A stretch of 59,771 nucleotides of DNA. Origin: an uncultured archaeon (lineage in GTDB: Archaea > EX4484-52 > LFW-46). Below, piece after piece: positions 2,221 to 56,521 of this stretch; positions within the stretch are counted from its first letter, which is position 1, and each line of letters begins with the position of its first letter. The stretch spans positions 1-59,771 of the forward strand of contig CABMCT010000029.1 of the NCBI GenBank assembly GCA_902384675.1. The letters are read 5' to 3'. The notes under the pieces were generated by a model. The model had not been told where the DNA came from. It saw nothing but the letters and a program-made list of their open reading frames with translations, and did not search any database. Position numbers and translations under genes: made by a program.

Positions 2221-2670
2221 TTACAGCAACTTGTCGATTTCCTTTTTGAAAGACTCGACATCGGTAAATCTTTTGTAGACCGATGCAAATCTGATATATG
2301 CGACTTCGTCAAGCGATTTTAACTTGCGCATCACAACCTGACCTATTTCCGAGCTTTTTACCTCGTGGTCGTCTTCATGCTTCTGCCTTATCTCGGATTC
2401 TATGTCGTTGGCAAGCTTATCTATTGCCTCGTGAGTTATCGGCCTTTTCTCGCATGCGTGCATTATGCCTCGCTTTACCTTTTCCCTGTCAAACTCTTCC
2501 CGGTTCCCGTCCTTTTTAATGACAAGAAGCGACGGCAGTTCTATGCGCTCGTAAGTCGTAAAGCGCCTGCTGCATTTCTCGCACTCTCTTCGCCTTCGGT
2601 TTATGTTGTCTTCGGATTCGCGCGAGTCAAGGACTTTTGTTTCTGTATGCGAGCAAAAAGGGCATTTCAC
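2221..2670 (-). CDS. nrdR: NrdR transcriptional repressor (Zn ribbon + ATP cone)
   Basis: MKCPFC...DSR...RRRRECEKCSRRFTTYE, then ATP cone VIKKDGNREEFDREK and C-terminal LDEVAYIRFASVY. GTG start; directly upstream of nrdD. Confidence 0.97.
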   Translation of the reverse strand: MKCPFCSHTETKVLDSRESEDNINRRRRECEKCSRRFTTYERIELPSLLVIKKDGNREEFDREKVKRGIMHACEKRPITHEAIDKLANDIESEIRQKHEDDHEVKSSEIGQVVMRKLKSLDEVAYIRFASVYKRFTDVESFKKEIDKLL

Positions 2671-2840
2671 GATTTACCACCTTGTTGTTTTTGTAAATCG
2701 TGAAAGCCTTGAACTTCGCGCTCAATGGCTGATAAGGCGAAGCGAATGGATTTCCAACCATCAGCATTATGCAGTGGGTTGGAAAGCTTGGAATACTCAT
2801 CACATGATTTTTCGCCATTCAATGAATGCATTGGGCGAAA
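2665..2840 (+). repeat. Modular palindromic repeat array, copy in the nrdR leader
   Basis: Contains a 13-bp perfect IR (2665-2677/2693-2705), an AAAGCC...GAATGGATTT junction, TTTCCAACCA...TGGGTTGGAAA, AAAGCTTG...CATGATTTTT and TTTTCGCCA...TGGGCGAAA. It is collinear with the copy at 16455-16592. Confidence 0.88.
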
Positions 2841-2867
2841 CTTCTTTGAATAAAGGGGGCATTTCAT
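2667..2867 (-). other. Possible 66-aa upstream ORF (MKCPLYSKKF...) whose stop overlaps the nrdR GTG
   Basis: AAGGTGA ribosome site 5 nt before ATG 2867. The first codons duplicate the nrdR start, and TGA overlaps the nrdR start as GTGA. The body is repeat-derived, so coding function is unproven. Confidence 0.35.
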
Positions 2868-2903
2868 ATTAATCACCTTACACTACCAAGCGAGTGTAAA
2901 CAG

Positions 2904-3714: not shown

Positions 3715-4230
3715 TTAAATGACCTTTTTTCCTCTTTCCTGCGATATAACGGTTAGTTTTGCCCCGCCGAATTTTTTTGTAAGCTCTTTTCCCTCGAAGA
3801 ATTCATGCAAAAAAACAGCAAGCGCAGCCACTTCAGAATGGGGTTGGCCGGTTACGGCAATGTTATAATCTGCAAGCTGATAGACTTCCCCGGGAACTTT
3901 TTCCCCGCCGACGATTATTAGCACGTCTTTTCCTTTTGATTTCTCTTTTATCTCGGAAATCTTGTCCTGTACCGGCATGCCGTACATCGTAAGATGAATT
4001 TTTATCCCTTTGAATTTCTCGATTATTTTTCTGGATTTTTCCTCGTATCTTATTTTGAATTTTCCACCCCATCTTTTTGCAACATCAGACACGGATTCAA
4101 GGACATTCTCGTCACGCTCCCCGGACAGTATTACTTCGTCTGCTCCAAGAGCACGCGCCGTAAGGCAGACATGGGTCGTAAGGCGCGCATCACGTACGCG
4201 GCGATGGGAAAGTCGGAGGATGGTGAGCAT
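3715..4230 (-). CDS. trm56: tRNA (cytidine-56 2'-O)-methyltransferase, SPOUT family
   Basis: [40 protein letters not shown] and [13 protein letters not shown] are archaeal aTrm56 motifs. Confidence 0.95.
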
Positions 4231-11760: not shown

Positions 11761-14478
11761 TTACCACCATTTAAGTGCGGAAAGAAAACCTTTCAGTGCA
11801 GAAAGATAGCCTTTGCGCAGGGCGTAATACCCTCCTGCCAGTATTGCTCCTATTGCGGTTGCTATCACGCCAGGGTTTTGAGCAGCTTTTAAAAGAAGAT
11901 TGCCTGTCGGCATCCCATCTGTGACTTCTATCTTTTTGAGCAAACTGTCCTCCCCGCCTTTTGTCTGCACCACGGCCCGAAGAGTTTTTGTGCCGGAGGA
12001 ATTGAACTTATAGACAAATGTGAAAACCGCGTCTCCGCTGATAAGCGTCTGCTTTCGCCCCACTTCTACATTATCTGCAAATAGGATCAATGATGCCTCG
12101 CCCGGCTTTAGCACCCTTACAGACACTCTTAACGCGACAGGGACATTCACACGCGCACTCTCATTAGGGGAGATATCAAGTATTTTTGCCCCGGCACCGC
12201 TATTGTCAGCAGCCTGCATCGATGCGCTTTCTTTTGTAACTACGTTTATTGATTTGCTGAAGTCCGAGCCGGAATCATTAAACCAGAGGTATACTAAATG
12301 ATTTCCTGCAGCTGAAAGCACCTGCGAATAATTGAAGCACGGCGCAGGTACGGTTACTGCCTCACTGCCCTTTAAAACTGTGTCAAGATATACATCGACT
12401 GTGCTGTTTTTATTGAGTTTTGCGACGCATCCGGATATGGCGAGCACATCTCCCGAATTTATGGAATCCGGGACGGACATATTTGAAAAGTATGCATTCT
12501 TGTTATCGCCGCTTGATGTGAGTGTGTAGCTTCCTCCACCGCCACCTCCTCCACCCCCGCCGCCGGAGCCAGATGAGCCCGTGCTTCCGGAGGGTGTTGA
12601 AACCTGCTGCTGGGCAGGGTCTATGCTAACATTTCCTGCTACGATATTGTCGCCTGGGAAAGAGTCATTTGTAAGGTTGGCGAAAAGTGTGAGGGTATGA
12701 TTTCCGGCTACTGCAGTCCAGTTAAAGCCGACTGTTTTGGTTTCCTGTGCCGAAAGGTTAAAGTATTTTGTTTCTGTGGTTGCATTATCCACCAGGAATA
12801 CTACAGGTACGTTTTCTTCGCTTGTAGATACCTTGTTCTTTAAATTTGTTGAAACCGAAGCGAGAGACCCGGCAGCAGATACATTAAGTGCAATCGATAT
12901 TCCGTTAAGCGAAACATCGTGCAAAGTTCCGTTCTGTGTTGTATTCGTTATATTGGTAGTATTGGAAGCGGAAGTGCTTGCGTTAACTGTTATTGATATT
13001 TCTTTGGAATTCCCGGAGGTATCGTTTGCCCTTGCATATATTGTGTTCAGGCCGGGCACAAGCGTTACCGGCATGCTCCATGAAGTTGTCCCTGAAACGC
13101 TTTGCCAGTCTCCTGTTCCAAGCCTTGCCTGTACCGTATCGAGGCCGGTATTATCCGAAGCGGTTCCGGTGACTGTGATGTTTCCGACAGGAAGCGCCTG
13201 GCCATCTGCCGGGTAGGTGATATTTACAACTGGAGGCGTTGTATCTGCCACGTTCTCCGAAACCCTAAGCGTTGTTGTGGCAGTTTCCTGCGGATTGCTG
13301 ACAGTAAAGCATCTCACATCATCTGCGGTTCCAGAAATCAAAGCAGTGTAATTTCCTGCAACAGCGGGCGTCCAGGTGAAATTGAATGTTGCCGGCGTGG
13401 AATTGTCCGGGTTTGCAGGTAGGCTGACTAAAGGCTGCACCATGACAGTGTCTCCTGTGCTGTTTGTTATCAAATATGTAGCCCGTGTTTTAACAGGCGC
13501 CAGATTATAATTCGGGTCCCAGATATCGTAGCTGTTTGCATAATTGCTGATTTTATTAAAAGTAAATGTTAGCGGTTCGTTTGCTTTTGGGTGCGGCGCA
13601 GAGTAAGATAATCCGTTGATTAATGTGTAGCAGGCATTTTTCGGGGCAGTTGCCCAGACCTTGAATACCTTTAGCTGCGTCTGCGGAATAACCGAATCCT
13701 GAACGCATTTTGCATCAGGAACGCCTGTTGTGACAGAGGCAGTATACGTTCCTTCGGTTGTCGGAGTCCAGATGAAGCGCACATGCTTTGAGCCGCTGTA
13801 CGGAATCAGCATATAAGTAGTATTGGTGTTGACCATATCGCCGTTGCCGTTTTTTATAACCAGAGTAACGCTTGTATTTACAGAATAGTGTGGATCAAGA
13901 AGCGGCGGGGCATATTCAAGAGGCCCGGCAGACTTTATGGCAGCAAAAGTATCTGCATCAAGGGTTGCGTTCATATCTATTACAAGAGGAATGTTCTTGT
14001 AAACATCATTTAAGACAGTGAAATTCATTATTGGCGCTGTGCAGGATTTTTTCTTTGCAAGATAATAAGTGCGCGCAGAAGCAGTTCCTGACCCGCTCCA
14101 GTTGGCCTTTACTTCATAAGGTATGTATCCGTCCTTATAGATATAGACACCGTAGCCAAAAGATGATTGCAACGTCGTGGGGTATGTAATATTCATGTTG
14201 CTTGAACTTCCTGCGGACAGCACCGGAGGATTACTTACGTCGGCGAGGCTTCCTGAAGAAATGTCCAGGCCGGAGCTTACTGTAGAGCAGTTTGCGGAGG
14301 AGCATAAAAATCCTATGGCACTTGCACCTGTAACAGGTATAGCAGTATCATTGACGACGCCTGATGATGATATTTCCCGGTACCTGATATTGGCAGGTAC
14401 AGTCACTGCTGCATGTGCTATTGAAACTGTTACAAAAAACGCTACTATGGCAAACAATACGATATTTTTTGATGACAT
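11761..14478 (-). CDS. Large secreted/surface glycoprotein with Ig/CARDB-like beta repeats, a Gly/Ser linker and a C-terminal membrane anchor
   Basis: Start reassigned to ATG 14478 (GGAGG site, MSSKNIVLFAIVAFF signal peptide). Has DTTPPVVNITYP, many N-X-S/T sequons and a C-terminal TM followed by a basic tail. Confidence 0.8.
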   Translation of the reverse strand: MSSKNIVLFAIVAFFVTVSIAHAAVTVPANIRYREISSSGVVNDTAIPVTGASAIGFLCSSANCSTVSSGLDISSGSLADVSNPPVLSAGSSSNMNITYPTTLQSSFGYGVYIYKDGYIPYEVKANWSGSGTASARTYYLAKKKSCTAPIMNFTVLNDVYKNIPLVIDMNATLDADTFAAIKSAGPLEYAPPLLDPHYSVNTSVTLVIKNGNGDMVNTNTTYMLIPYSGSKHVRFIWTPTTEGTYTASVTTGVPDAKCVQDSVIPQTQLKVFKVWATAPKNACYTLINGLSYSAPHPKANEPLTFTFNKISNYANSYDIWDPNYNLAPVKTRATYLITNSTGDTVMVQPLVSLPANPDNSTPATFNFTWTPAVAGNYTALISGTADDVRCFTVSNPQETATTTLRVSENVADTTPPVVNITYPADGQALPVGNITVTGTASDNTGLDTVQARLGTGDWQSVSGTTSWSMPVTLVPGLNTIYARANDTSGNSKEISITVNASTSASNTTNITNTTQNGTLHDVSLNGISIALNVSAAGSLASVSTNLKNKVSTSEENVPVVFLVDNATTETKYFNLSAQETKTVGFNWTAVAGNHTLTLFANLTNDSFPGDNIVAGNVSIDPAQQQVSTPSGSTGSSGSGGGGGGGGGGGSYTLTSSGDNKNAYFSNMSVPDSINSGDVLAISGCVAKLNKNSTVDVYLDTVLKGSEAVTVPAPCFNYSQVLSAAGNHLVYLWFNDSGSDFSKSINVVTKESASMQAADNSGAGAKILDISPNESARVNVPVALRVSVRVLKPGEASLILFADNVEVGRKQTLISGDAVFTFVYKFNSSGTKTLRAVVQTKGGEDSLLKKIEVTDGMPTGNLLLKAAQNPGVIATAIGAILAGGYYALRKGYLSALKGFLSALKWW

Positions 14479-14479
14479 T

Positions 14480-15784
14480 TTAACCTCCTCCGCTTCCACC
14501 TTCTTCTCCGCCGGATATTCCTCCGCCATCACTTCCCCCGGAAGATGGCGAACCTCCTCCGCTGCTTGAGCCCGAAGAGCTGCTACCACCGCCTCCCACC
14601 GAGCCGCTTCCGGTATACAGTCCCGCGTCTCCGATTATTTTTAGCATGTTATCGGCAGAATTATCTTCAAGGCGCCCCTTTGCAGTATTTATGCCAACCG
14701 CAATATAGTTATCGCCCTTTGATGTGGCGTGGTCTACAGCGACTTTTCCCTGATTTCTTAGAACAAGCGCAGGGGTTGGGGGGGTATAGTCTCCCTGAAT
14801 CTTTTTTACAATGTATACGTTTGAAGCGCTATCCTTTACGGCCTGGGCGTACATCGCTTCTAAGGCATCTGAGAAGTGCATGCTTGATGAAACATTAGCC
14901 TTCGCAGCGGCAGGGGATTTGCCAGAAGTATTAGGGACAATTTTGTAAAGAGCTCCGTAAGATGTTCTTTGGACTTCGGTAATTGTCTGCGTCGGCTCAA
15001 GAAATATGTCTACAGGAAGGTCCTGGAGAGAATATTTGCTGAAATTTTGCGGTACACCGCCCCATGCGTCGCTAAGTAATCCGTTAATTTTTGCGCGGTC
15101 TGTGTAATTGATTTTGTGTATGTGGTTATTGCCGTATATCGTAAGGATGCCGCTGCTTGCAGGGTTGGTTGGCGTTACAGAAGGCGCGTAAGCAGGGGTT
15201 TCAGTCGGAGTGATGACTGGAGTTTCCTGAGGGATTATGGCCGGTGTACTTGTAATATTATTGTCATTCGCCGTATGGTTGTCTCCCTGGCCGTTTACGT
15301 TGTGCCCCGTGCAGCCAGAAATTGTAACAATGGCACCGACTCCGAAAGCAAGCCCAAGTGCTTTTAGAATCCCATACGGAGACACGCTCGCTGCAATATT
15401 ATGTGAAAATGTGGGTCTGCTGGCCCTATCGATTGCTAGTTGTACATCGATATTCTCTGTATGCGTGTCTGGTGTGTCAGCCGATCTTTCATTTACCTGT
15501 GCTACTATTTCCTTAAAGCATAAATCATATTCTGCGTTCAGTTGCTGAATGTATTTCTCAAGTTCTATGCGGCGTTCTTGAGGATTAACACTACTCAATT
15601 CTTCTGCCTTTGTTTTAACCGCATTGAAATAGGTATTATTCAAATCACGGACTGGTCCATAAAAAAAGGAAAGAGATAAGCCATTTGTTGCAGGGTTTTT
15701 TAGCACAGATTTAGAAACTGTTGAGCCTACTTCATTGCATACCTTTGTCCAAATGGTGTCTCCTATTTCATAAAGCGTTCTCAT
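14480..15784 (-). CDS. Membrane-anchored/lipoprotein-like protein with a Pro/Thr linker and Gly/Ser tail, unknown function
   Basis: 434 aa. A hydrophobic helix ending ISGC lies about 140-158 aa in, followed by ETPVITPTETP repeats and a GGS tail. Confidence 0.7.
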   Translation of the reverse strand: MRTLYEIGDTIWTKVCNEVGSTVSKSVLKNPATNGLSLSFFYGPVRDLNNTYFNAVKTKAEELSSVNPQERRIELEKYIQQLNAEYDLCFKEIVAQVNERSADTPDTHTENIDVQLAIDRASRPTFSHNIAASVSPYGILKALGLAFGVGAIVTISGCTGHNVNGQGDNHTANDNNITSTPAIIPQETPVITPTETPAYAPSVTPTNPASSGILTIYGNNHIHKINYTDRAKINGLLSDAWGGVPQNFSKYSLQDLPVDIFLEPTQTITEVQRTSYGALYKIVPNTSGKSPAAAKANVSSSMHFSDALEAMYAQAVKDSASNVYIVKKIQGDYTPPTPALVLRNQGKVAVDHATSKGDNYIAVGINTAKGRLEDNSADNMLKIIGDAGLYTGSGSVGGGGSSSSGSSSGGGSPSSGGSDGGGISGGEEGGSGGG

Positions 15785-16099: not shown

Positions 16100-16375
16100 T
16101 TATTCCTGCACGCCTTCAGCCATTGGAGCGGATATGTGCTTTATTATAATGATATCGTTTATTGCCTTTATCAGTGGGTAAGGAACAATAACGCCGCGCT
16201 TTCCGCCGACGACTTCAGAAAGATACGAGCCTTTTGCCACGTTTACGACAACCGCATGCACCCTGAATTTTGTCAGGTCGAGAATCACATCCTCGGTTTT
16301 GCCGCAATACAGACCTTTGTCCGTGAAAATATCTTTCCCTCTTATGTCGCTTACGACTCGTTCATTTACAACCAT
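16100..16375 (-). CDS. PRC-barrel protein, similar to archaeal CdpB cell-division proteins
   Basis: GKDIFTDKGLYCGKTEDVILD...GKRGVIVPYPLIKAINDIIII is a single PRC-barrel pattern. Confidence 0.8.
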   Translation of the reverse strand: MVVNERVVSDIRGKDIFTDKGLYCGKTEDVILDLTKFRVHAVVVNVAKGSYLSEVVGGKRGVIVPYPLIKAINDIIIIKHISAPMAEGVQE

Positions 16376-16402
16376 TTTTTATCATCTCTTTAAGCATTAG
16401 AT

Positions 16403-16650
16403 AAAAATCCTGCCACTTACGTGGCAAGCTTTTGGGGATTTTTCAGCTTCGCTGAAAAAGCCTAGAGCGCAACGCCTTATGGTTAACAAGGCGAAGCGAA
16501 CGGATTTTGAACCATTGACTTAATGCATTGGGTTCAAAAGCTTGGAACTTAGTTCCATGATTTTTCGCCATCAATCTATGCTGTGGGCGAAAACAGCTTG
16601 ACACAAAGTGTCATGATTTTGAACCATATAAATTATGCACTGGGTTAAAT
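16403..16650 (+). repeat. Modular palindromic repeat array (longest collinear copy)
   Basis: Alternating hairpins: three CCA...ATGC..TGGG stems, two (A)AGCTTG-stem-CATGATTTT modules, one AAAAGCC...GAACGGATTTT module and one inverted module at 16403-16434. Confidence 0.9.
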
Positions 16651-16731: not shown

Positions 16732-16929
16732 GCTGGGATCGCCTAGTGGTATGGCGCTAGCCTGCTAAGCTAGTGGGTTCTGCCCGCGTGAGTTCAAACC
16801 GGTTTTTCGGATAAAAGAGATTTATTCCGCCCTCGCGAAGCGAGGTCGGTGGTTCTTTCTTTTCTACCCGGATTTGTCTATTCTTTCTTACAAGAAAGAA
16901 AAGAAACCGTGAAAATCTCACTCCCAGCG
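16732..16929 (+). tRNA. tRNA-Ser(GCT), intron-containing, CCA not encoded
   Basis: Acceptor GCTGGGA/TCCCAGC, discriminator G, anticodon arm CTAGC-CTGCTAA-GCTAG (GCT at 16764-16766), long variable arm and T stem GTGAG/CTCAC. Confidence 0.95.
16799..16915 (+). other. 117-nt tRNA intron at position 59/60 (T loop)
   Basis: Strict BHB: GTGAG-TTCA-AA|C-CGGTTT pairs with AAACCG-TGAA-AA|T-CTCAC. Removal restores the TTCAAAT T loop. Confidence 0.92.
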
Positions 16930-16961: not shown

Positions 16962-17022
16962 AAAATCATCTCGTTCGCTGCCCGCGAACTCCAAGCTTTT
17001 TATTTTTGCGATGCACGAGGTG
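16962..17022 (-). repeat. Repeat-family module in the alg14-like leader
   Basis: AAAATCATCTCGTTCGC-tgccc-GCGAACTCCAAGCTTTT, then ATGCA and GAGGTG. Near-identical to 30692-30750. Confidence 0.8.
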
Positions 17023-17029
17023 GGCAAAA

Positions 17030-17470
17030 ATGAAAATTTGTCTCGCATGCTCTGCAGGAGGACACTTGGCCGAACTGCTGCAGGTAAAAGCCGCATTCAG
17101 GGGGCACGATACTTTTTTTGTTACCTTTCTTCGCGAGGATTCAAAGGAGCTCAAAAATGCATATTTTATCGAGGACCCGAGAAGAAATCCTTTGCGCCTG
17201 ATTAAGACTATTTTTTCGTCGCTTTCTATACTGAAAAAAGAAAACCCTGACGTGATACTCACAACAGGGGCAGGTGTTGCGGTTCCTATCTGCTGGCTGG
17301 CAAAAATCATGGGCAAAAAAGTGGCTTATCTTGAATCTTTTTGCAGGGTGAAGGAGCCTTCACTTTCGGGAAAGCTGGTTTATCCGATAGCGGATTTGTT
17401 TTTAGTGCAGTGGGAAGGCATGCTTTCAAAGTATGGCAAAAAGGCGAAATATTGGGGGGCTGTATTTTAG
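17030..17470 (+). CDS. Alg14/PssD-like glycosyltransferase acceptor subunit
   Basis: MKICLACSAGGHLAEL, PDVILTTGAGVAVP and YLESFCR...LSGKL. GAGGTG site upstream of ATG 17030. Confidence 0.9.
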   Translation: MKICLACSAGGHLAELLQVKAAFRGHDTFFVTFLREDSKELKNAYFIEDPRRNPLRLIKTIFSSLSILKKENPDVILTTGAGVAVPICWLAKIMGKKVAYLESFCRVKEPSLSGKLVYPIADLFLVQWEGMLSKYGKKAKYWGAVF

Positions 17471-17520
17471 CGCGAAGCGCTAAAAGCCGAGAGTGAACGC
17501 AAGTGAACGAACGGATTTTG
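17465..17520 (+). repeat. Repeat-family copy between the alg14- and alg13-like genes
   Basis: TTTTAGCGC-GAA-GCGCTAAAA perfect stem, followed by an AAAAGCC...GAACGGATTTT junction. Confidence 0.8.
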
Positions 17521-17540
17521 ATTTTAAGGAGGAGTTACCA

Positions 17541-18020
17541 ATGATTTTTGTTACTGTAGGAACTCATACGCAGGGGTTTGAGAGGCTCATTAAAGCAGTG
17601 GACGAGCTTGTTGGAGGAGGCAAAATAAAGGAAAAAGTAGTGATGCAGATAGGGAACACGAAGTACGAGCCGGAAAACTGCGAATACTTCCGCTTTGAGC
17701 GCTTTAAAAAAATCCTTGAATTGAATAAAAATGCACGAGTAATAATAACGCATGCGGGTGCGGGATGCGTCATAACCGCGCTGCAATTTAGAAAGCCGCT
17801 GGTTATTGTCCCAAGGTATAAAAAGTTCGGCGAGCATGTTAATGATCATCAGTGCGACCTTGCAGCGGCGCTTGAGCGGGAGAAGAAGGCAATCAATGTG
17901 AGCGATATAAGCGGCCTTGAAGCGGCGTTAAAAAACATTGGCAAACTGGCAAAAAAGAGAAAAAATGGCGCATTGGTAAGCAAATTAGCTGCATATTTAA
18001 ATCAACAGGCGGGTCTATGA
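17541..18020 (+). CDS. Alg13/PssE-like glycosyltransferase (GT28 C-terminal domain)
   Basis: [16 protein letters not shown] and IVPR...[14 protein letters not shown] site before ATG 17541. Confidence 0.9.
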
Positions 18021-19066
18021 AAGGCAAAAGCGCATTAATAACAGGGATAACAGGACAGGACGGCTCTTATCTGGCAGAACTTCTTTTAAGCAAAGGATAT
18101 ATCGTGCACGGAATAATCCGCAGGGCAAGCACATTCAATACCGCAAGGGTTGACCATATTTATTCGGACATCCATGACCCAAAAACGAGATTGTTTATGT
18201 ACTATGGCGACCTGTCCGATGCAGAGCAGATATCCAACATAATCTATAATGTAAAGCCGGACGAGGTTTATCATCTCGGTGCACAGAGCCACGTGCGCGT
18301 AAGCTTTGATATCCCCGAATATACAGGAAACATAACTGCTCTTGGAACAACGCGCATTCTTGAGGCAATGCGCAGGAGCGGCAACCACATAAAATTCTAC
18401 CAGGCATCGTCAAGCGAGATGTTCGGCGCAGCGCTTCCGCCGCAAAGCGAGACAACGCCCTTTATGCCGAGAAGCCCTTACGCGGCAGCAAAGGTTTATG
18501 CATACTGGATGGCGGTCAATTATCGCAACGGCTACAATATGTTTGCGTCAAACGGCATTCTTTTCAACCACGAAAGCCCCCGGCGCGGGGAGACATTTGT
18601 CACAAGAAAAATCACCCGTGCAATAGCCGCGATACTTACCAAAAAGCAAAATCAGCTGTACCTTGGAAATCTTGATGCAGAAAGGGACTGGGGATTTGCG
18701 CCAGAATATGTGGAAGGCATGTGGAAAATTCTGCAGGAAAAGTTGCCGGGAGATTATGTTCTCGGTACGGGAGAGACGCACAGCGTAAGGGAATTTGTTA
18801 ACGAGACGTTCAAATACGCCGGGCTGGATTCCGAAAAATACGTTGCAATAGACCCGAGATATTTCAGGCCCACAGAGGTTGAGAAATTGAGGGCGGCTCC
18901 GTCAAAGGCACGAAACCAGCTTGGCTGGACGCCGAAGATAACATTCAGAGACCTTGTCAAAATCATGGTCGATGCCGACATGCGTGCTGCAGGGCTGGCA
19001 CCGATCGGGGAAGGCGACGAAATTCTTGCCAAAAAATTCCCGCAAAGATGGTGGACAAAAGACTGA
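18017..19066 (+). CDS. gmd: GDP-mannose 4,6-dehydratase (intein-free copy)
   Basis: [36 protein letters not shown] and RDWG. Confidence 0.96.
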
Positions 19067-24332: not shown

Positions 24333-24482
24333 TTTCCAATCGCCGAAGGCTATTGGAAAGCTTGAAACTCATTTTGAATATTTTCGCTCCACAATATGTA
24401 AAGCGAAAATTTCGAAAGCTTGAAAATCTGCATGATTGCATAATGATTTTCATGACATGTTTTGCAAGCGAGTTTCATGATT
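24333..24482 (+). repeat. Nested repeat-family copy
   Basis: Outer AAAGCTTGAAACTC (24357-24370)...GAGTTTCATGATT (24470-24482) encloses inner AAAGCTTGAAAATC (24415-24428)...GATTTTCATGA (24445-24455). Confidence 0.88.
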
Positions 24483-26157: not shown

Positions 26158-26258
26158 AAGTCATCTCGTTTGCTACTGCAAACTTGAAGCTTTTGAGGAT
26201 TTACGAGCGAAGCTTCGAAAGCTTGAAACTCAACAGGTATGCACAAGAGTTTTATGAC
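26158..26258 (+). repeat. Repeat-family copy
   Basis: TCATCTCGTTTGC...GCAAACTTGAAGCTTTTGAGGATTT, GCGAAGC and TTCGAAAGCTTGAAACTC...GAGTTTTATGAC. Confidence 0.85.
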
Positions 26259-32199: not shown

Positions 32200-32487
32200 G
32201 GCATGGGTTCCAACTCATTGCATAATGTTAATCCTTTCGCTTGCGTTCTAGGCTTTTCAGCCCCCAAGCAATTGGCGAATTGTTGAAAATCCTCAAAAGC
32301 TTGCCATTTCGAACCTTGTGTTCGAAAGCTTGAAAATCTCTGAGATTTTCATGACGCAAGTGGCATGATTTTTATCCAAGTAAAATCATGACACCTCCAG
32401 CTTTTCAAGCTGGAAGCCTTCGAGATTTATCGGGATGGCTTCGTGTCAAGCTTTTCAACCCAATAATAATTGTGAATGGTTAAAAAT
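32200..32487. repeat. Largest repeat array, with modules in both orientations
   Basis: Plus strand: AAAAGCTTGCCA (32295)...TGGCATGATTTTT (32373) enclosing AAAGCTTGAAAATC...GATTTTCATGA. Minus strand: AAAATCATGACAC (32382)...GTGTCAAGCTTTT (32455), plus reversed CCA...TGGG and AAAAGCCTAGA modules. Confidence 0.9.
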
Positions 32488-32502
32488 GGAGAATGATAAA
32501 AA

Positions 32503-33474
32503 ATGATTTCAGTTATAATTCCGGCATATAATTCTGAAAAAACAATAAGGGGCTGCCTCCAAGCCCTTCAGTCTCAAAGCATCAAGGATATCGAAGTCAT
32601 TGTTGTGGACGACGGCTCAAGTGACGATACAGCGTCGATTGTCAAATCGTTCAAAAATGTAAAATTTTTCAAAAGACAGCACAAAGGCCCTGCATCGGAG
32701 CGGAATTTTGGCGCTAAAATGGCCAAGGGAGAAATACTTCTTTTTACGGATTCCGATTGCGAGCCGGACAAAAACTGGGTTTCTGAAATGGTTGCCCCGT
32801 TTAAGAGTGATAAGTCGGTTGTCGGCGTTTCAGGGACATACAGGACGCGCCAGAAAGAGCTGATTGCAAGATTCGCGCAGTACGAAATCGAGGAGCGGCA
32901 CGAGAAAATGGCAAAGGCGGGTTCCATTGATTTCATCGGGACGTTTTCGGCAGGATACAGGAAAGAAATATTTGACAAATTCGGCGGGTTTGACGAATCA
33001 TTTTCAACATCTGCAGGCGAGGACCCTGAGCTATCATTCAGAATCGCAGAAGCAGGTTATAAAATGGTCTTTGCGCCGAAAGCGTTTGTTTATCATACGC
33101 ATCCGAATACACTCCGGAAATATTTGAAGCAGAAATACAGGAATGCTTTTTGGAGGGTTGCTGTCTATGCAAAGAGAAAAAAGACTTTCAGGAAAGGGCA
33201 TTCTTATACACCGACAAGCGCGTTAATAGAAGCAATATGTGTCGCTGGATTTTTAATATCTTTGTTTTTGTATTTGATCTACCCGACCGCAGGATATAAA
33301 GCCATAACGCGAGGATTTTTGTTATTCACTTTCCTTCCATCGGCATTGCTTACATATCATATAGCTGAAAAAGATATCGCTGTTGGGATGGCTTCACCAT
33401 TCATAATAATTCTTCGCGCGTTTGTAACTGCGTTTGGAATTACGCGCGGCTTTCTTAAGAGGTACGTCGTATGA
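32503..33474 (+). CDS. GT2 glycosyltransferase with C-terminal TMs
   Basis: SVIIPAYN, VDDGSSD, FTDSDC and AGEDPEL. Confidence 0.9.
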   Translation: MISVIIPAYNSEKTIRGCLQALQSQSIKDIEVIVVDDGSSDDTASIVKSFKNVKFFKRQHKGPASERNFGAKMAKGEILLFTDSDCEPDKNWVSEMVAPFKSDKSVVGVSGTYRTRQKELIARFAQYEIEERHEKMAKAGSIDFIGTFSAGYRKEIFDKFGGFDESFSTSAGEDPELSFRIAEAGYKMVFAPKAFVYHTHPNTLRKYLKQKYRNAFWRVAVYAKRKKTFRKGHSYTPTSALIEAICVAGFLISLFLYLIYPTAGYKAITRGFLLFTFLPSALLTYHIAEKDIAVGMASPFIIILRAFVTAFGITRGFLKRYVV

Positions 33475-56462: not shown

Positions 56463-56521
56463 AAAGGCTTGGCATTTCATGCCATGATTTTCAATATGCA
56501 TTGAAGCGATTCACTTTCGCT
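56463..56521 (+). repeat. Repeat-family copy between aglB and the flippase
   Basis: AAAGGCTTGGCA-tttca-TGCCATGATTTT, then CAAT-ATGC-ATTG. Confidence 0.78.

Follow-up and report, generated by a model that had tools for sequence, protein, structure and literature searches.

Covarying hairpins of an uncultured archaeon as modules of a dispersed family of small DNA repeats

The hairpin family and its host

The covarying hairpins described here are one module type, termed "H", of a larger modular family of small hairpin-forming DNA repeats, present in about 75 copies in the genome of an uncultured archaeon. The window, which is the whole analysed stretch of 59,771 nucleotides, is contig C29 of an assembly comprising 76 contigs and 1.2 Mb, with a completeness of 89% and a G+C content of 43.7%. 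The assignment of the host to Archaea is based on the gene of the archaeal tRNA C56 2'-O-methyltransferase, encoded in the window at 3715-4230, and on the introns predicted by ARAGORN in six of the tRNA genes of the genome. Genome sizes of relatives from this order range from 0.5 to 1.6 Mb.

Five H hairpins occur in the window, all of them on the plus strand (Table 1). They have a common form, in which a T-run is followed by a variable stem, the segment CCA-T...ATGC..TGGG, the complement of the stem and an A-run. The pattern CCAT-N6-9-ATGC-N1-3-TGGG is found five times in the window; the mean for shuffled sequences is 0.08, and five matches were reached in none of the 100 shuffles. The original prediction described a double compensatory change from TG/CA to CC/GG between the hairpins at 16505 and 2751. 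This change is exact, and all of the sequences and coordinates given with it are correct. The additional ATGCA sites listed in the prediction are also located in hairpin loops or at the centres of palindromes (Table 1).

Modular anatomy of the repeat

The architecture of the element was found by extending the copies upstream of the H hairpins. The modules follow each other in a constant order: an A hairpin, AGCCGAGAGC, a B hairpin, GCGAACGGATTT and an H hairpin, after which further 56-nt units composed of H and S can optionally be added. The A hairpin has the same T-run...CCAT...TGGG...A-run design as H, and the B hairpin consists of a 7-bp stem with the loop nnnnnATGGTTnATAAG. The H module, 33-35 nt in length, starts with a T-run, followed by 4-5 freely varying base pairs and a constant CC/GG top with an unpaired A/G, and ends with the closing A-run. 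Its loop of 14-16 nt contains an invariant T, and the ATGC motif is placed at a set distance from TGGG. The S hairpin is built of AAAGCyTG, a variable stem and CATGATTT; the pattern of the S junction is present at 57 sites in the genome, 39 of which have at least 6 consecutive pairs, with 17 stem variants.

The H modules alternate with the S hairpins or with the longer B hairpin. The A-run closing an H hairpin is at the same time the A-run opening the next S or B, and the T-run closing an S hairpin opens the next H. As the runs are common to neighbouring modules, the arrays can be described as interlocked palindromes with a 56-nt period, e.g., at 16505, 16561 and 16617. Within one array, the H modules are direct repeats with a period of 56-57 nt. 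Both strands of the element fold far better than shuffled sequences, with z scores of -5.0 for RNA and -6.4 for DNA.

Table 1. Modules of the three repeat arrays and hairpins around further ATGCA sites in the window
Feature	Position	Strand	Remarks
A-type hairpin of nrdR copy, perfect 13-bp stem TTTCACGATTTAC / GTAAATCGTGAAA (gene strand)	2665..2705	+	GTG start of nrdR inside the gene-strand 3' arm; AAGGTG in the loop
B hairpin of nrdR copy, stem CTTCGC / GCGAAG, loop ATGGCTGATAAG	2714..2742	+	
H (TTTCCAACCA / TGGGTTGGAAA), S linker, second H (TTTTTCGCCA / TGGGCGAAA)	2751..2840	+	period 57 nt; H hairpins at 2751-2785 and 2808-2840
Distal copy of duplicated nrdR ribosome-binding site and start, AAGGTGATTAATATGAAATGCCCCC	2855..2879	-	proximal copy at 2660-2683
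A-type hairpin TTTTTTATCA...AGATAAAAA	16375..16407	+	abuts start codon of minus-strand ORF 16100-16375; R1 match 16374-16408
Two small accessory hairpins, CTGCCAC-TTAC-GTGGCAG-like and TTTTTCAGC-TTCG-GCTGAAAAA	16410..16460	+	between A hairpin and linker
Linker AGCCTAGAGC, B hairpin (loop ATGGTTAACAAGG), linker GCGAACGGA	16459..16504	+	
H hairpin C1, TTTTGAACCA / TGGGTTCAAAA, loop ...ATGCAT	16505..16539	+	
S hairpin S1, AAAGCTTG-GAAC-TTA-GTTC-CATGATTT	16537..16563	+	A-run and T-run in common with neighbouring H hairpins
H hairpin C2, TTTTTCGCCA / TGGGCGAAAA, loop ...ATGCTG	16561..16593	+	
S hairpin S2, AAACAGCTTG-ACAC-AAA-GTGT-CATGATTT	16591..16619	+	
H hairpin C3, TTTTGAACCA / TGGGTTAAA, degenerate 3' arm	16617..16649	+	lineage-specific unit
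Hairpin or palindrome centre, reversed ATGCA at about 24437	24422..24451		
Hairpin or palindrome centre, ATGCA at 26239	26226..26252		
Hairpin or palindrome centre, reversed ATGCA at about 32219	32205..32234		
Degenerate array of the repeat family, opposite orientation	32205..32505	-	two tandem A-type hairpins (..TTTTCAACCC..ATGGTTAAAAATGGAGAATGATAAAAAATG) at its end, immediately ahead of ATG of plus-strand gene 32503-33474
Hairpin or palindrome centre, ATGCA at 56496	56488..56505		

Conservation of pairing and of the loop

The covariation of the stems was assessed in an alignment of 59 full copies from the genome (A1), in which the B and H stems were counted together and comprised 17 pairs. 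The stem cells are paired in 89.0% of cases, compared with 74.7% after shuffling, and double-sided changes are found in 163 cells, compared with 49.7 expected. The covariation score of 0.438 (0.170 for shuffled alignments) was equalled by none of the 500 shuffles, and sliding of the partners gave scores of only 0.05-0.14. Double changes affect all seven pairs of the B stem and five of the ten pairs of the H stem. Among metagenome relatives, a set of 18 copies, selected by pattern and fitted to the model, which favours structure, has 94% of the cells paired and a score of 0.518 vs 0.149. The S hairpins with their stem variants constitute the third helix class.

The second part of the original prediction concerned the loop, and here as well the expectation agrees with the alignment. 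The T following CCA carries 2.0 bits of information, and the A, T, G and C of the motif carry 1.1, 2.0, 1.9 and 1.5 bits, respectively, compared with 0.3-0.8 bits at other loop positions. The register of ATGC, described as common to the loops, is constant with respect to the 3' side, 2 nt before TGGG, and its distance to CCAT is variable. The loop consensus also mirrors the 3' arm, forming an inner palindrome TTAACCCAATGCATTGGGTTAA. This inner palindrome was considered as a maintained helix and rejected, as its copy-specific pairing reaches 71.7% vs 69.3% in shuffled copies and its covariation is weak. The inner pairing comes mostly from the consensus, and therefore the outer stem is the maintained helix.

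The same behavior is seen between copies that occupy one locus in both genomes of the genus. In such orthologous copies, whose flanking genes are about 70-80% identical, 16 double-sided changes keep the pairs. The B stems contribute six of these changes and three breaks, and the H stems contribute ten, together with two single pair-keeping changes and nine breaks, five of which fall on the two end pairs. The unpaired positions differ between orthologous copies in 32% of cases. The A hairpins likewise change both arms, as read by eye in the alignment rather than counted by script. An example is the copy after tRNA-Val, where the T-rich 5' arms differ between the two species and each is accompanied by its own matching 3' arm.

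According to the original prediction, both the pairing and the loop are under selection. The pairing and the loop motif are indeed kept far beyond chance, within the genome, in the relatives and in orthologous copies. The prediction did not cover the context, in which the hairpins belong to a larger dispersed element that relatives gain and lose and that grows by single units. Mobile-element biology or correction from arm to arm could therefore give rise to covariation with no function for the host. Recognition or cleavage of the hairpin by a protein, proposed on the same grounds, is a plausible hypothesis; no partner protein was found.

Copy number, range and age

The profile of the B+H core gives 94 matches in 72 clusters of the 1.2-Mb genome, 63 of them of full length. 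With the covariance model, 75 matches are obtained in this genome and 23 in G001, the only further genome of the genus, compared with none in 39 genomes from seven other families of the order. In metagenomes, the specific pattern of the repeat was found at 15 loci of additional lineages, and for 12 of them an alignment with this genome shows an identity of 74-91%; the same pattern gave no matches in the viral contigs searched. The pattern CGAACGGATTTNNNNCCAT, with 15 fixed bases, proved too loose and produced 117 single chance matches in unrelated bacteria.

The copies within the genome show a mutual identity of only 70-82% and still pair, indicating that the family is old and does not come from a recent burst. 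No near-identical copies were found within the genome, hence there is no sign of recent transposition. No description of this repeat family was found in the literature searched. For some DPANN genomes, large numbers of MITEs are known from surveys (PMC11602168).

Gain, loss and accretion between relatives

At collinear sites, the relatives differ in the presence of whole elements as well as of single 56-nt H+S units. An example of such a difference is the element upstream of nrdR (2665-2880 of the window), which is absent from the orthologous site of G001. The repeat entered nrdR after codon 4 (2660-2880, minus strand), and the ribosome-binding site and the start were duplicated, so that a diverged copy of about 28 nt, comprising the ribosome-binding site and the first nrdR codons, lies on either side of the element. 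The old start now opens an ORF of 69 codons through the repeat, and the TGA of this ORF overlaps the new GTG start in the sequence GTGA, an arrangement that suggests coupling by termination and reinitiation.

The opposite situation is found at sites that are filled in G001 and empty in the studied genome. Two filled sites of G001 are empty at C53, and additional cases are found at C72 and C69. The spacers here are 13 nt and 43 nt at two of the empty sites and about 15 nt at a third; at the C53 site, the 13-nt spacer corresponds to about 120 nt in G001. At one G001 site, a complete H-B-A element is placed exactly between the stop codon and the next ATG. The flanking duplications are inconsistent: nrdR has one of about 28 nt, and the C53 site lacks one.

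The array at 16375-16649 can be compared with its counterpart on L148, a metagenome contig of 321 kb. This locus has A, B and a single H, whose stem TTTTTCGCC/GGGCGAAAA is the stem of C2; C2 is therefore probably the ancestral copy. C1+S1 and S2+C3 are missing from the L148 locus and, judged from this comparison, are lineage-specific additions. The two accessory hairpins at 16410-16460 are missing from the L148 element as well. The C1+S1 unit is exactly 56 nt long and is located at a GA|TTTT junction; the end of S2+C3 could not be aligned precisely. Additions and losses occur at (G/T)GA|TTTT junctions. The elements are found between stop and start codons, at the 5' ends of genes and after tRNA genes, and in G001 the loop of an A hairpin contains H+S units as well.

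Position of the repeats relative to genes

The repeats are strongly intergenic, with 8% of the core bases falling within ORFs of at least 120 codons, compared with an ORF coverage of 89% for the genome. One copy is located inside an ORF of 571 aa, near its 5' end. In 46 of 62 cases, the A end is directed toward a gene start located on the opposite strand (p = 1.8e-4), and in 16 it is turned the other way; six times it is found at the 3' end of a tRNA. In 31 of the 72 clusters, both flanking genes run in the direction of the reverse complement of the reported strand. The A loops carry a GGAG-like sequence or AAGGTG, and the 3' arm on the gene strand ends at the start codon or includes it.

Several observations were made in the neighborhood of the repeats. 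A tRNA-Ser(GCU) gene at 16732-16929 is missed by ARAGORN and by Rfam (28.4 bits, at a cut-off of 29). Its T-loop is interrupted by about 117 nt, and the removal of 16797-16913 results in a clean tRNA-Ser call. The ortholog on L148 has only about 41 nt at the same position, which shows that the T-loop intron is expanded here; the CTACCCGGATTT segment of the insert resembles a sequence in a repeat array of G001. Repeats also directly flank the genes of tRNA-Ala(UGC) and tRNA-Phe, with ARAGORN introns of 235 nt and 122 nt, respectively (C13:6580-6900 and C65:26683-26881).

Two minus-strand ORFs of 942 and 434 aa (11761-15784) have no NCBIfam match, and the latter has no homologue in G001. They adjoin a polysaccharide cluster with PssD, PssE and GDP-mannose dehydratase (17006-19066), and so the region looks like a variable surface-glycan locus. 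The most under-represented 6-mers of the whole genome are the palindromes CTCGAG (83 observed vs 177 expected) and CGGCCG (75 vs 141), which may be restriction targets. ATGCAT was rejected as such a target, as its 515 occurrences vs 498 expected indicate neither avoidance nor enrichment.

Search for a mobilising enzyme and for known classes

No mobilising enzyme for the repeats was identified in the genome. The single match to the Y1 transposase family (PF01797) is the tnpA of an ordinary tnpA-tnpB insertion sequence of the IS200/IS605 type, located on a contig with no repeats. This copy (C57:2-4087) includes a tnpB of 404 aa, and a second tnpB, 82% identical, is found at C74:3175-4383. About 1.8 kb downstream of the C57 insertion sequence, the end of the contig carries an ORF that begins with a PLMP motif resembling that of IscB (...MRGQPLMPTTPRKARILLK...). 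No repeats were found on or beside the Y1 loci of G001, G030 and G032, and Y1 genes are present in repeat-free relatives too. No parent insertion sequence was found for the repeats, and no element-wide terminal inverted repeats were seen by inspection of the alignments. The search for reverse transcriptases (RVT_1) gave no match, and a retroelement origin was rejected; so was a viral origin, given the lack of matches in the viral contigs.

The known classes of RNA and of signals were considered in the same way. In the window, Rfam 15 gives no matches at the gathering thresholds, and at E <= 1 only the neighbouring tRNA-Ser gene is reported. An intrinsic terminator of the rho-independent type, in which a U-tract comes after a G+C-rich stem, does not fit, because on both strands the T-run precedes as the 5' arm and the A-run follows. 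A box C/D sRNA or K-turn, which CATGATTT and AGCTTGA could bring to mind, was rejected as well: archaeal box C/D sRNAs have RUGAUGA and CUGA boxes at a guide spacing of 12 nt, but the linkers read CATGATTTT and AGCTTGA, so that the C and D boxes are not intact, and there is no Rfam snoRNA match. For the B loop TTATAAAC read as a TATA box, no BRE stood out by eye, and the motif lies inside a covarying hairpin.

Possible origins of the repeats

On balance, the hairpins are probably the H modules of a genus-restricted, non-autonomous and modular family of hairpin repeats, i.e., mobile DNA in which the hairpin and its conserved apex are recognised by a putative factor. The units would be copied or kept through a single-stranded hairpin form, and the conserved top with the ATGC apex would be the recognition site of a trans-acting protein. 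The stems would covary because only the pairing matters and not the sequence of the stem. After insertion, 5' leaders and intercistronic spacers would carry the units, with the A variant placing a ribosome-binding site and a start codon. Against this reading stand the failure to find a mobilising enzyme or a reverse transcriptase, the Y1 genes of repeat-free relatives, the inconsistent flanking duplications and the lack of near-identical copies. A minority share of the probability is given to arrays that are cis-acting RNA structures under host selection. Read on the strand opposite to the reported one, they would serve as stabilisers, sites of processing or cassettes for translation start, located in 5' leaders and intercistronic spacers. 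Such a role is consistent with the co-directional flanking genes and the A ends at start codons, with the GGAG or AAGGTG of the A loops and the 3' arm reaching the start codon, with the strong folding of both strands and with the compensatory changes in orthologous copies. In addition, one copy is located between two genes which in the sister genome are only 13 nt apart, and it must therefore be co-transcribed. Against such a role, the wobble signature is not consistent: G:T and A:C mismatches number 13 vs 21 in the 59 copies and 27 vs 10 in 114 H hairpins, which implies opposite strands. The six copies lying in the other orientation directly after tRNA 3' ends, and the 16 of 62 facing the other way, also argue against it, and the presence or absence of the element between close relatives means that the neighbouring genes work without it. 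Orthologous copies that stay in place over a divergence of about 25% agree equally well with retention at the level of the host and with selfish persistence.

It is rather unlikely that the covariation is a by-product of DNA mechanics. An extruded hairpin in which one arm is the template for correcting the other, through gene conversion or mismatch repair, or an arm newly copied from its partner, would keep the stems perfect with no selection on function. Such a mechanism would account for stem sequences that drift freely and stay complementary, with G:T not preferred over other mismatches. It would also account for the A-type stems, which are idiosyncratic perfect inverted copies of the local flanks, differing between the species and matching within each, e.g., the stem over the nrdR start with 13 of 13 bp and the tRNA-Val trailer with its T-run and complement. 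The invariance of the unpaired T, of ATGC and of the stem-top A/G across lineages, despite a change of about 32% at other unpaired positions, is left unexplained by this mechanism, as is the dispersal to more than 70 sites. An origin of the repeats as cut-down derivatives of the resident IS200/IS605, mobilised by its TnpA in the manner of the haloarchaeal PATEs, is quite improbable. Members of the IS200/IS605 family (IS608/ISDra2) recognise imperfect single-stranded DNA hairpins with unpaired bases and insert beside a short fixed sequence with no duplication. The units are apparently added at the fixed GA|TTTT junction, and a tnpA-tnpB element as well as a second tnpB are present. Nevertheless, the ends of the insertion sequence, CTCCCGCC-TTAA-GGCGTGGAG and GGAGATGAATTGCC... 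(C57, C74), are unlike the H, S and B hairpins, the three Y1 loci are devoid of repeats and Y1 genes occur in relatives that lack the family. Chance inverted repeats in AT-rich spacers, against which the original prediction had already argued, have only the low G+C of the spacers in their favor; this origin is refuted for practical purposes by five pattern matches vs 0.08, the 94 profile hits and the covariation found in none of the 500 shuffles.

Within the preferred reading, that of mobile hairpin repeats, a more specific proposal can be put forward tentatively. The 56-nt H+S unit could be the substrate of an undescribed archaeal system of mobilisation or maintenance, in which a putative protein, neither RAYT nor the resident TnpA, would read the invariant unpaired bases of the extruded single-stranded hairpin (the T that follows CCA, the apex ATGC and the additional G). 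Such a system would add units at GA|TTTT, also inside the loops of existing copies, and would create a new inverted copy of the target beside it. This last step would account for the perfect A stems that differ from locus to locus and lie over start codons and tRNA trailers.

Implications

Strong pressure toward compactness is generally assumed for the genomes of small-genome (DPANN-type) archaea. Even so, structured repeats of one old family, whose turnover continues, make up about 1% of this genome by a rough estimate (72 clusters of about 150 nt). They account for odd gene calls, such as spurious small ORFs, duplicated starts and the nearby tRNA gene missed by the finders. Its three covarying helix classes, together with filled and empty sites, provide a natural test of the origin of stem covariation by function, selfish propagation or DNA repair. 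The partner protein, if one exists, would be a new archaeal enzyme recognising single-stranded hairpins. The A variant, read from its sequence, suggests how a gene could receive its ribosome-binding site and start codon from a repeat.

Comparison with known repeat systems

Miniature elements of haloarchaea derived from IS200/IS605, termed PATEs, were reportedly described by Dyall-Smith et al. in 2011. The present repeats resemble them in being archaeal, hairpin-ended, non-autonomous and small, and recognition of a single-stranded DNA hairpin would fit the conserved bulge and loop. In contrast to PATEs, the repeat modules bear no resemblance to the hairpins at the ends of the resident IS200/IS605 copies. 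Among archaea, Haloquadratum walsbyi is listed as a carrier of MITEs (PMC10969869).

The BOX element of Streptococcus pneumoniae, boxA-boxB(n)-boxC (PMC10969869), is likewise modular, with a variable number of the internal module, a stable predicted secondary structure, mutual insertion of elements and no known parent insertion sequence. The modules of BOX are not interlocked hairpins with common A- and T-runs, however, BOX is bacterial, and a sequence relation is not expected. The Rickettsia palindromic elements (RPE; PMC10969869) share the genus-level range, the palindromic families of about 100-150 bp, the reduced host genome and the lack of a known transposase. As in RPE, an insertion can reach into a coding sequence without killing the gene, here nrdR after its fourth codon. 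Unlike RPE, the copies are overwhelmingly intergenic, with the low share of core bases in ORFs given above, the nrdR insertion is rescued by a duplicated start rather than by in-frame read-through, and the element is modular and accretes units.

REP palindromes have a GTAG or CGTC tetranucleotide conserved at one end (PMC3733652). No such head is present in the 59-copy alignment, where the feet of the hairpins are GGATTT with a T-run on the 5' side and an A-run on the 3' side. The modules are direct repeats with a 56-nt period, unlike REPIN and BIME, whose orientation alternates; there is also no RAYT gene flanked by repeats, and the host is an archaeon, whereas REP/RAYT systems belong to Enterobacteria and Pseudomonas. 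What is shared with REP/BIME and REPINs (PMC2817692, PMC3116915, PMC3733652) are the short imperfect palindromes (20-40 nt in REP systems, 33-35 nt for H) in high copy number with a strongly extragenic location, the clustered composite arrays with fixed linkers, the stems that vary between classes while conserved unpaired bases persist, and the long vertical persistence. By analogy, the element would work most like the REP/BIME arrays, the Rickettsia palindromic elements and the pneumococcal BOX (PMC2817692, PMC3733652, PMC10969869).
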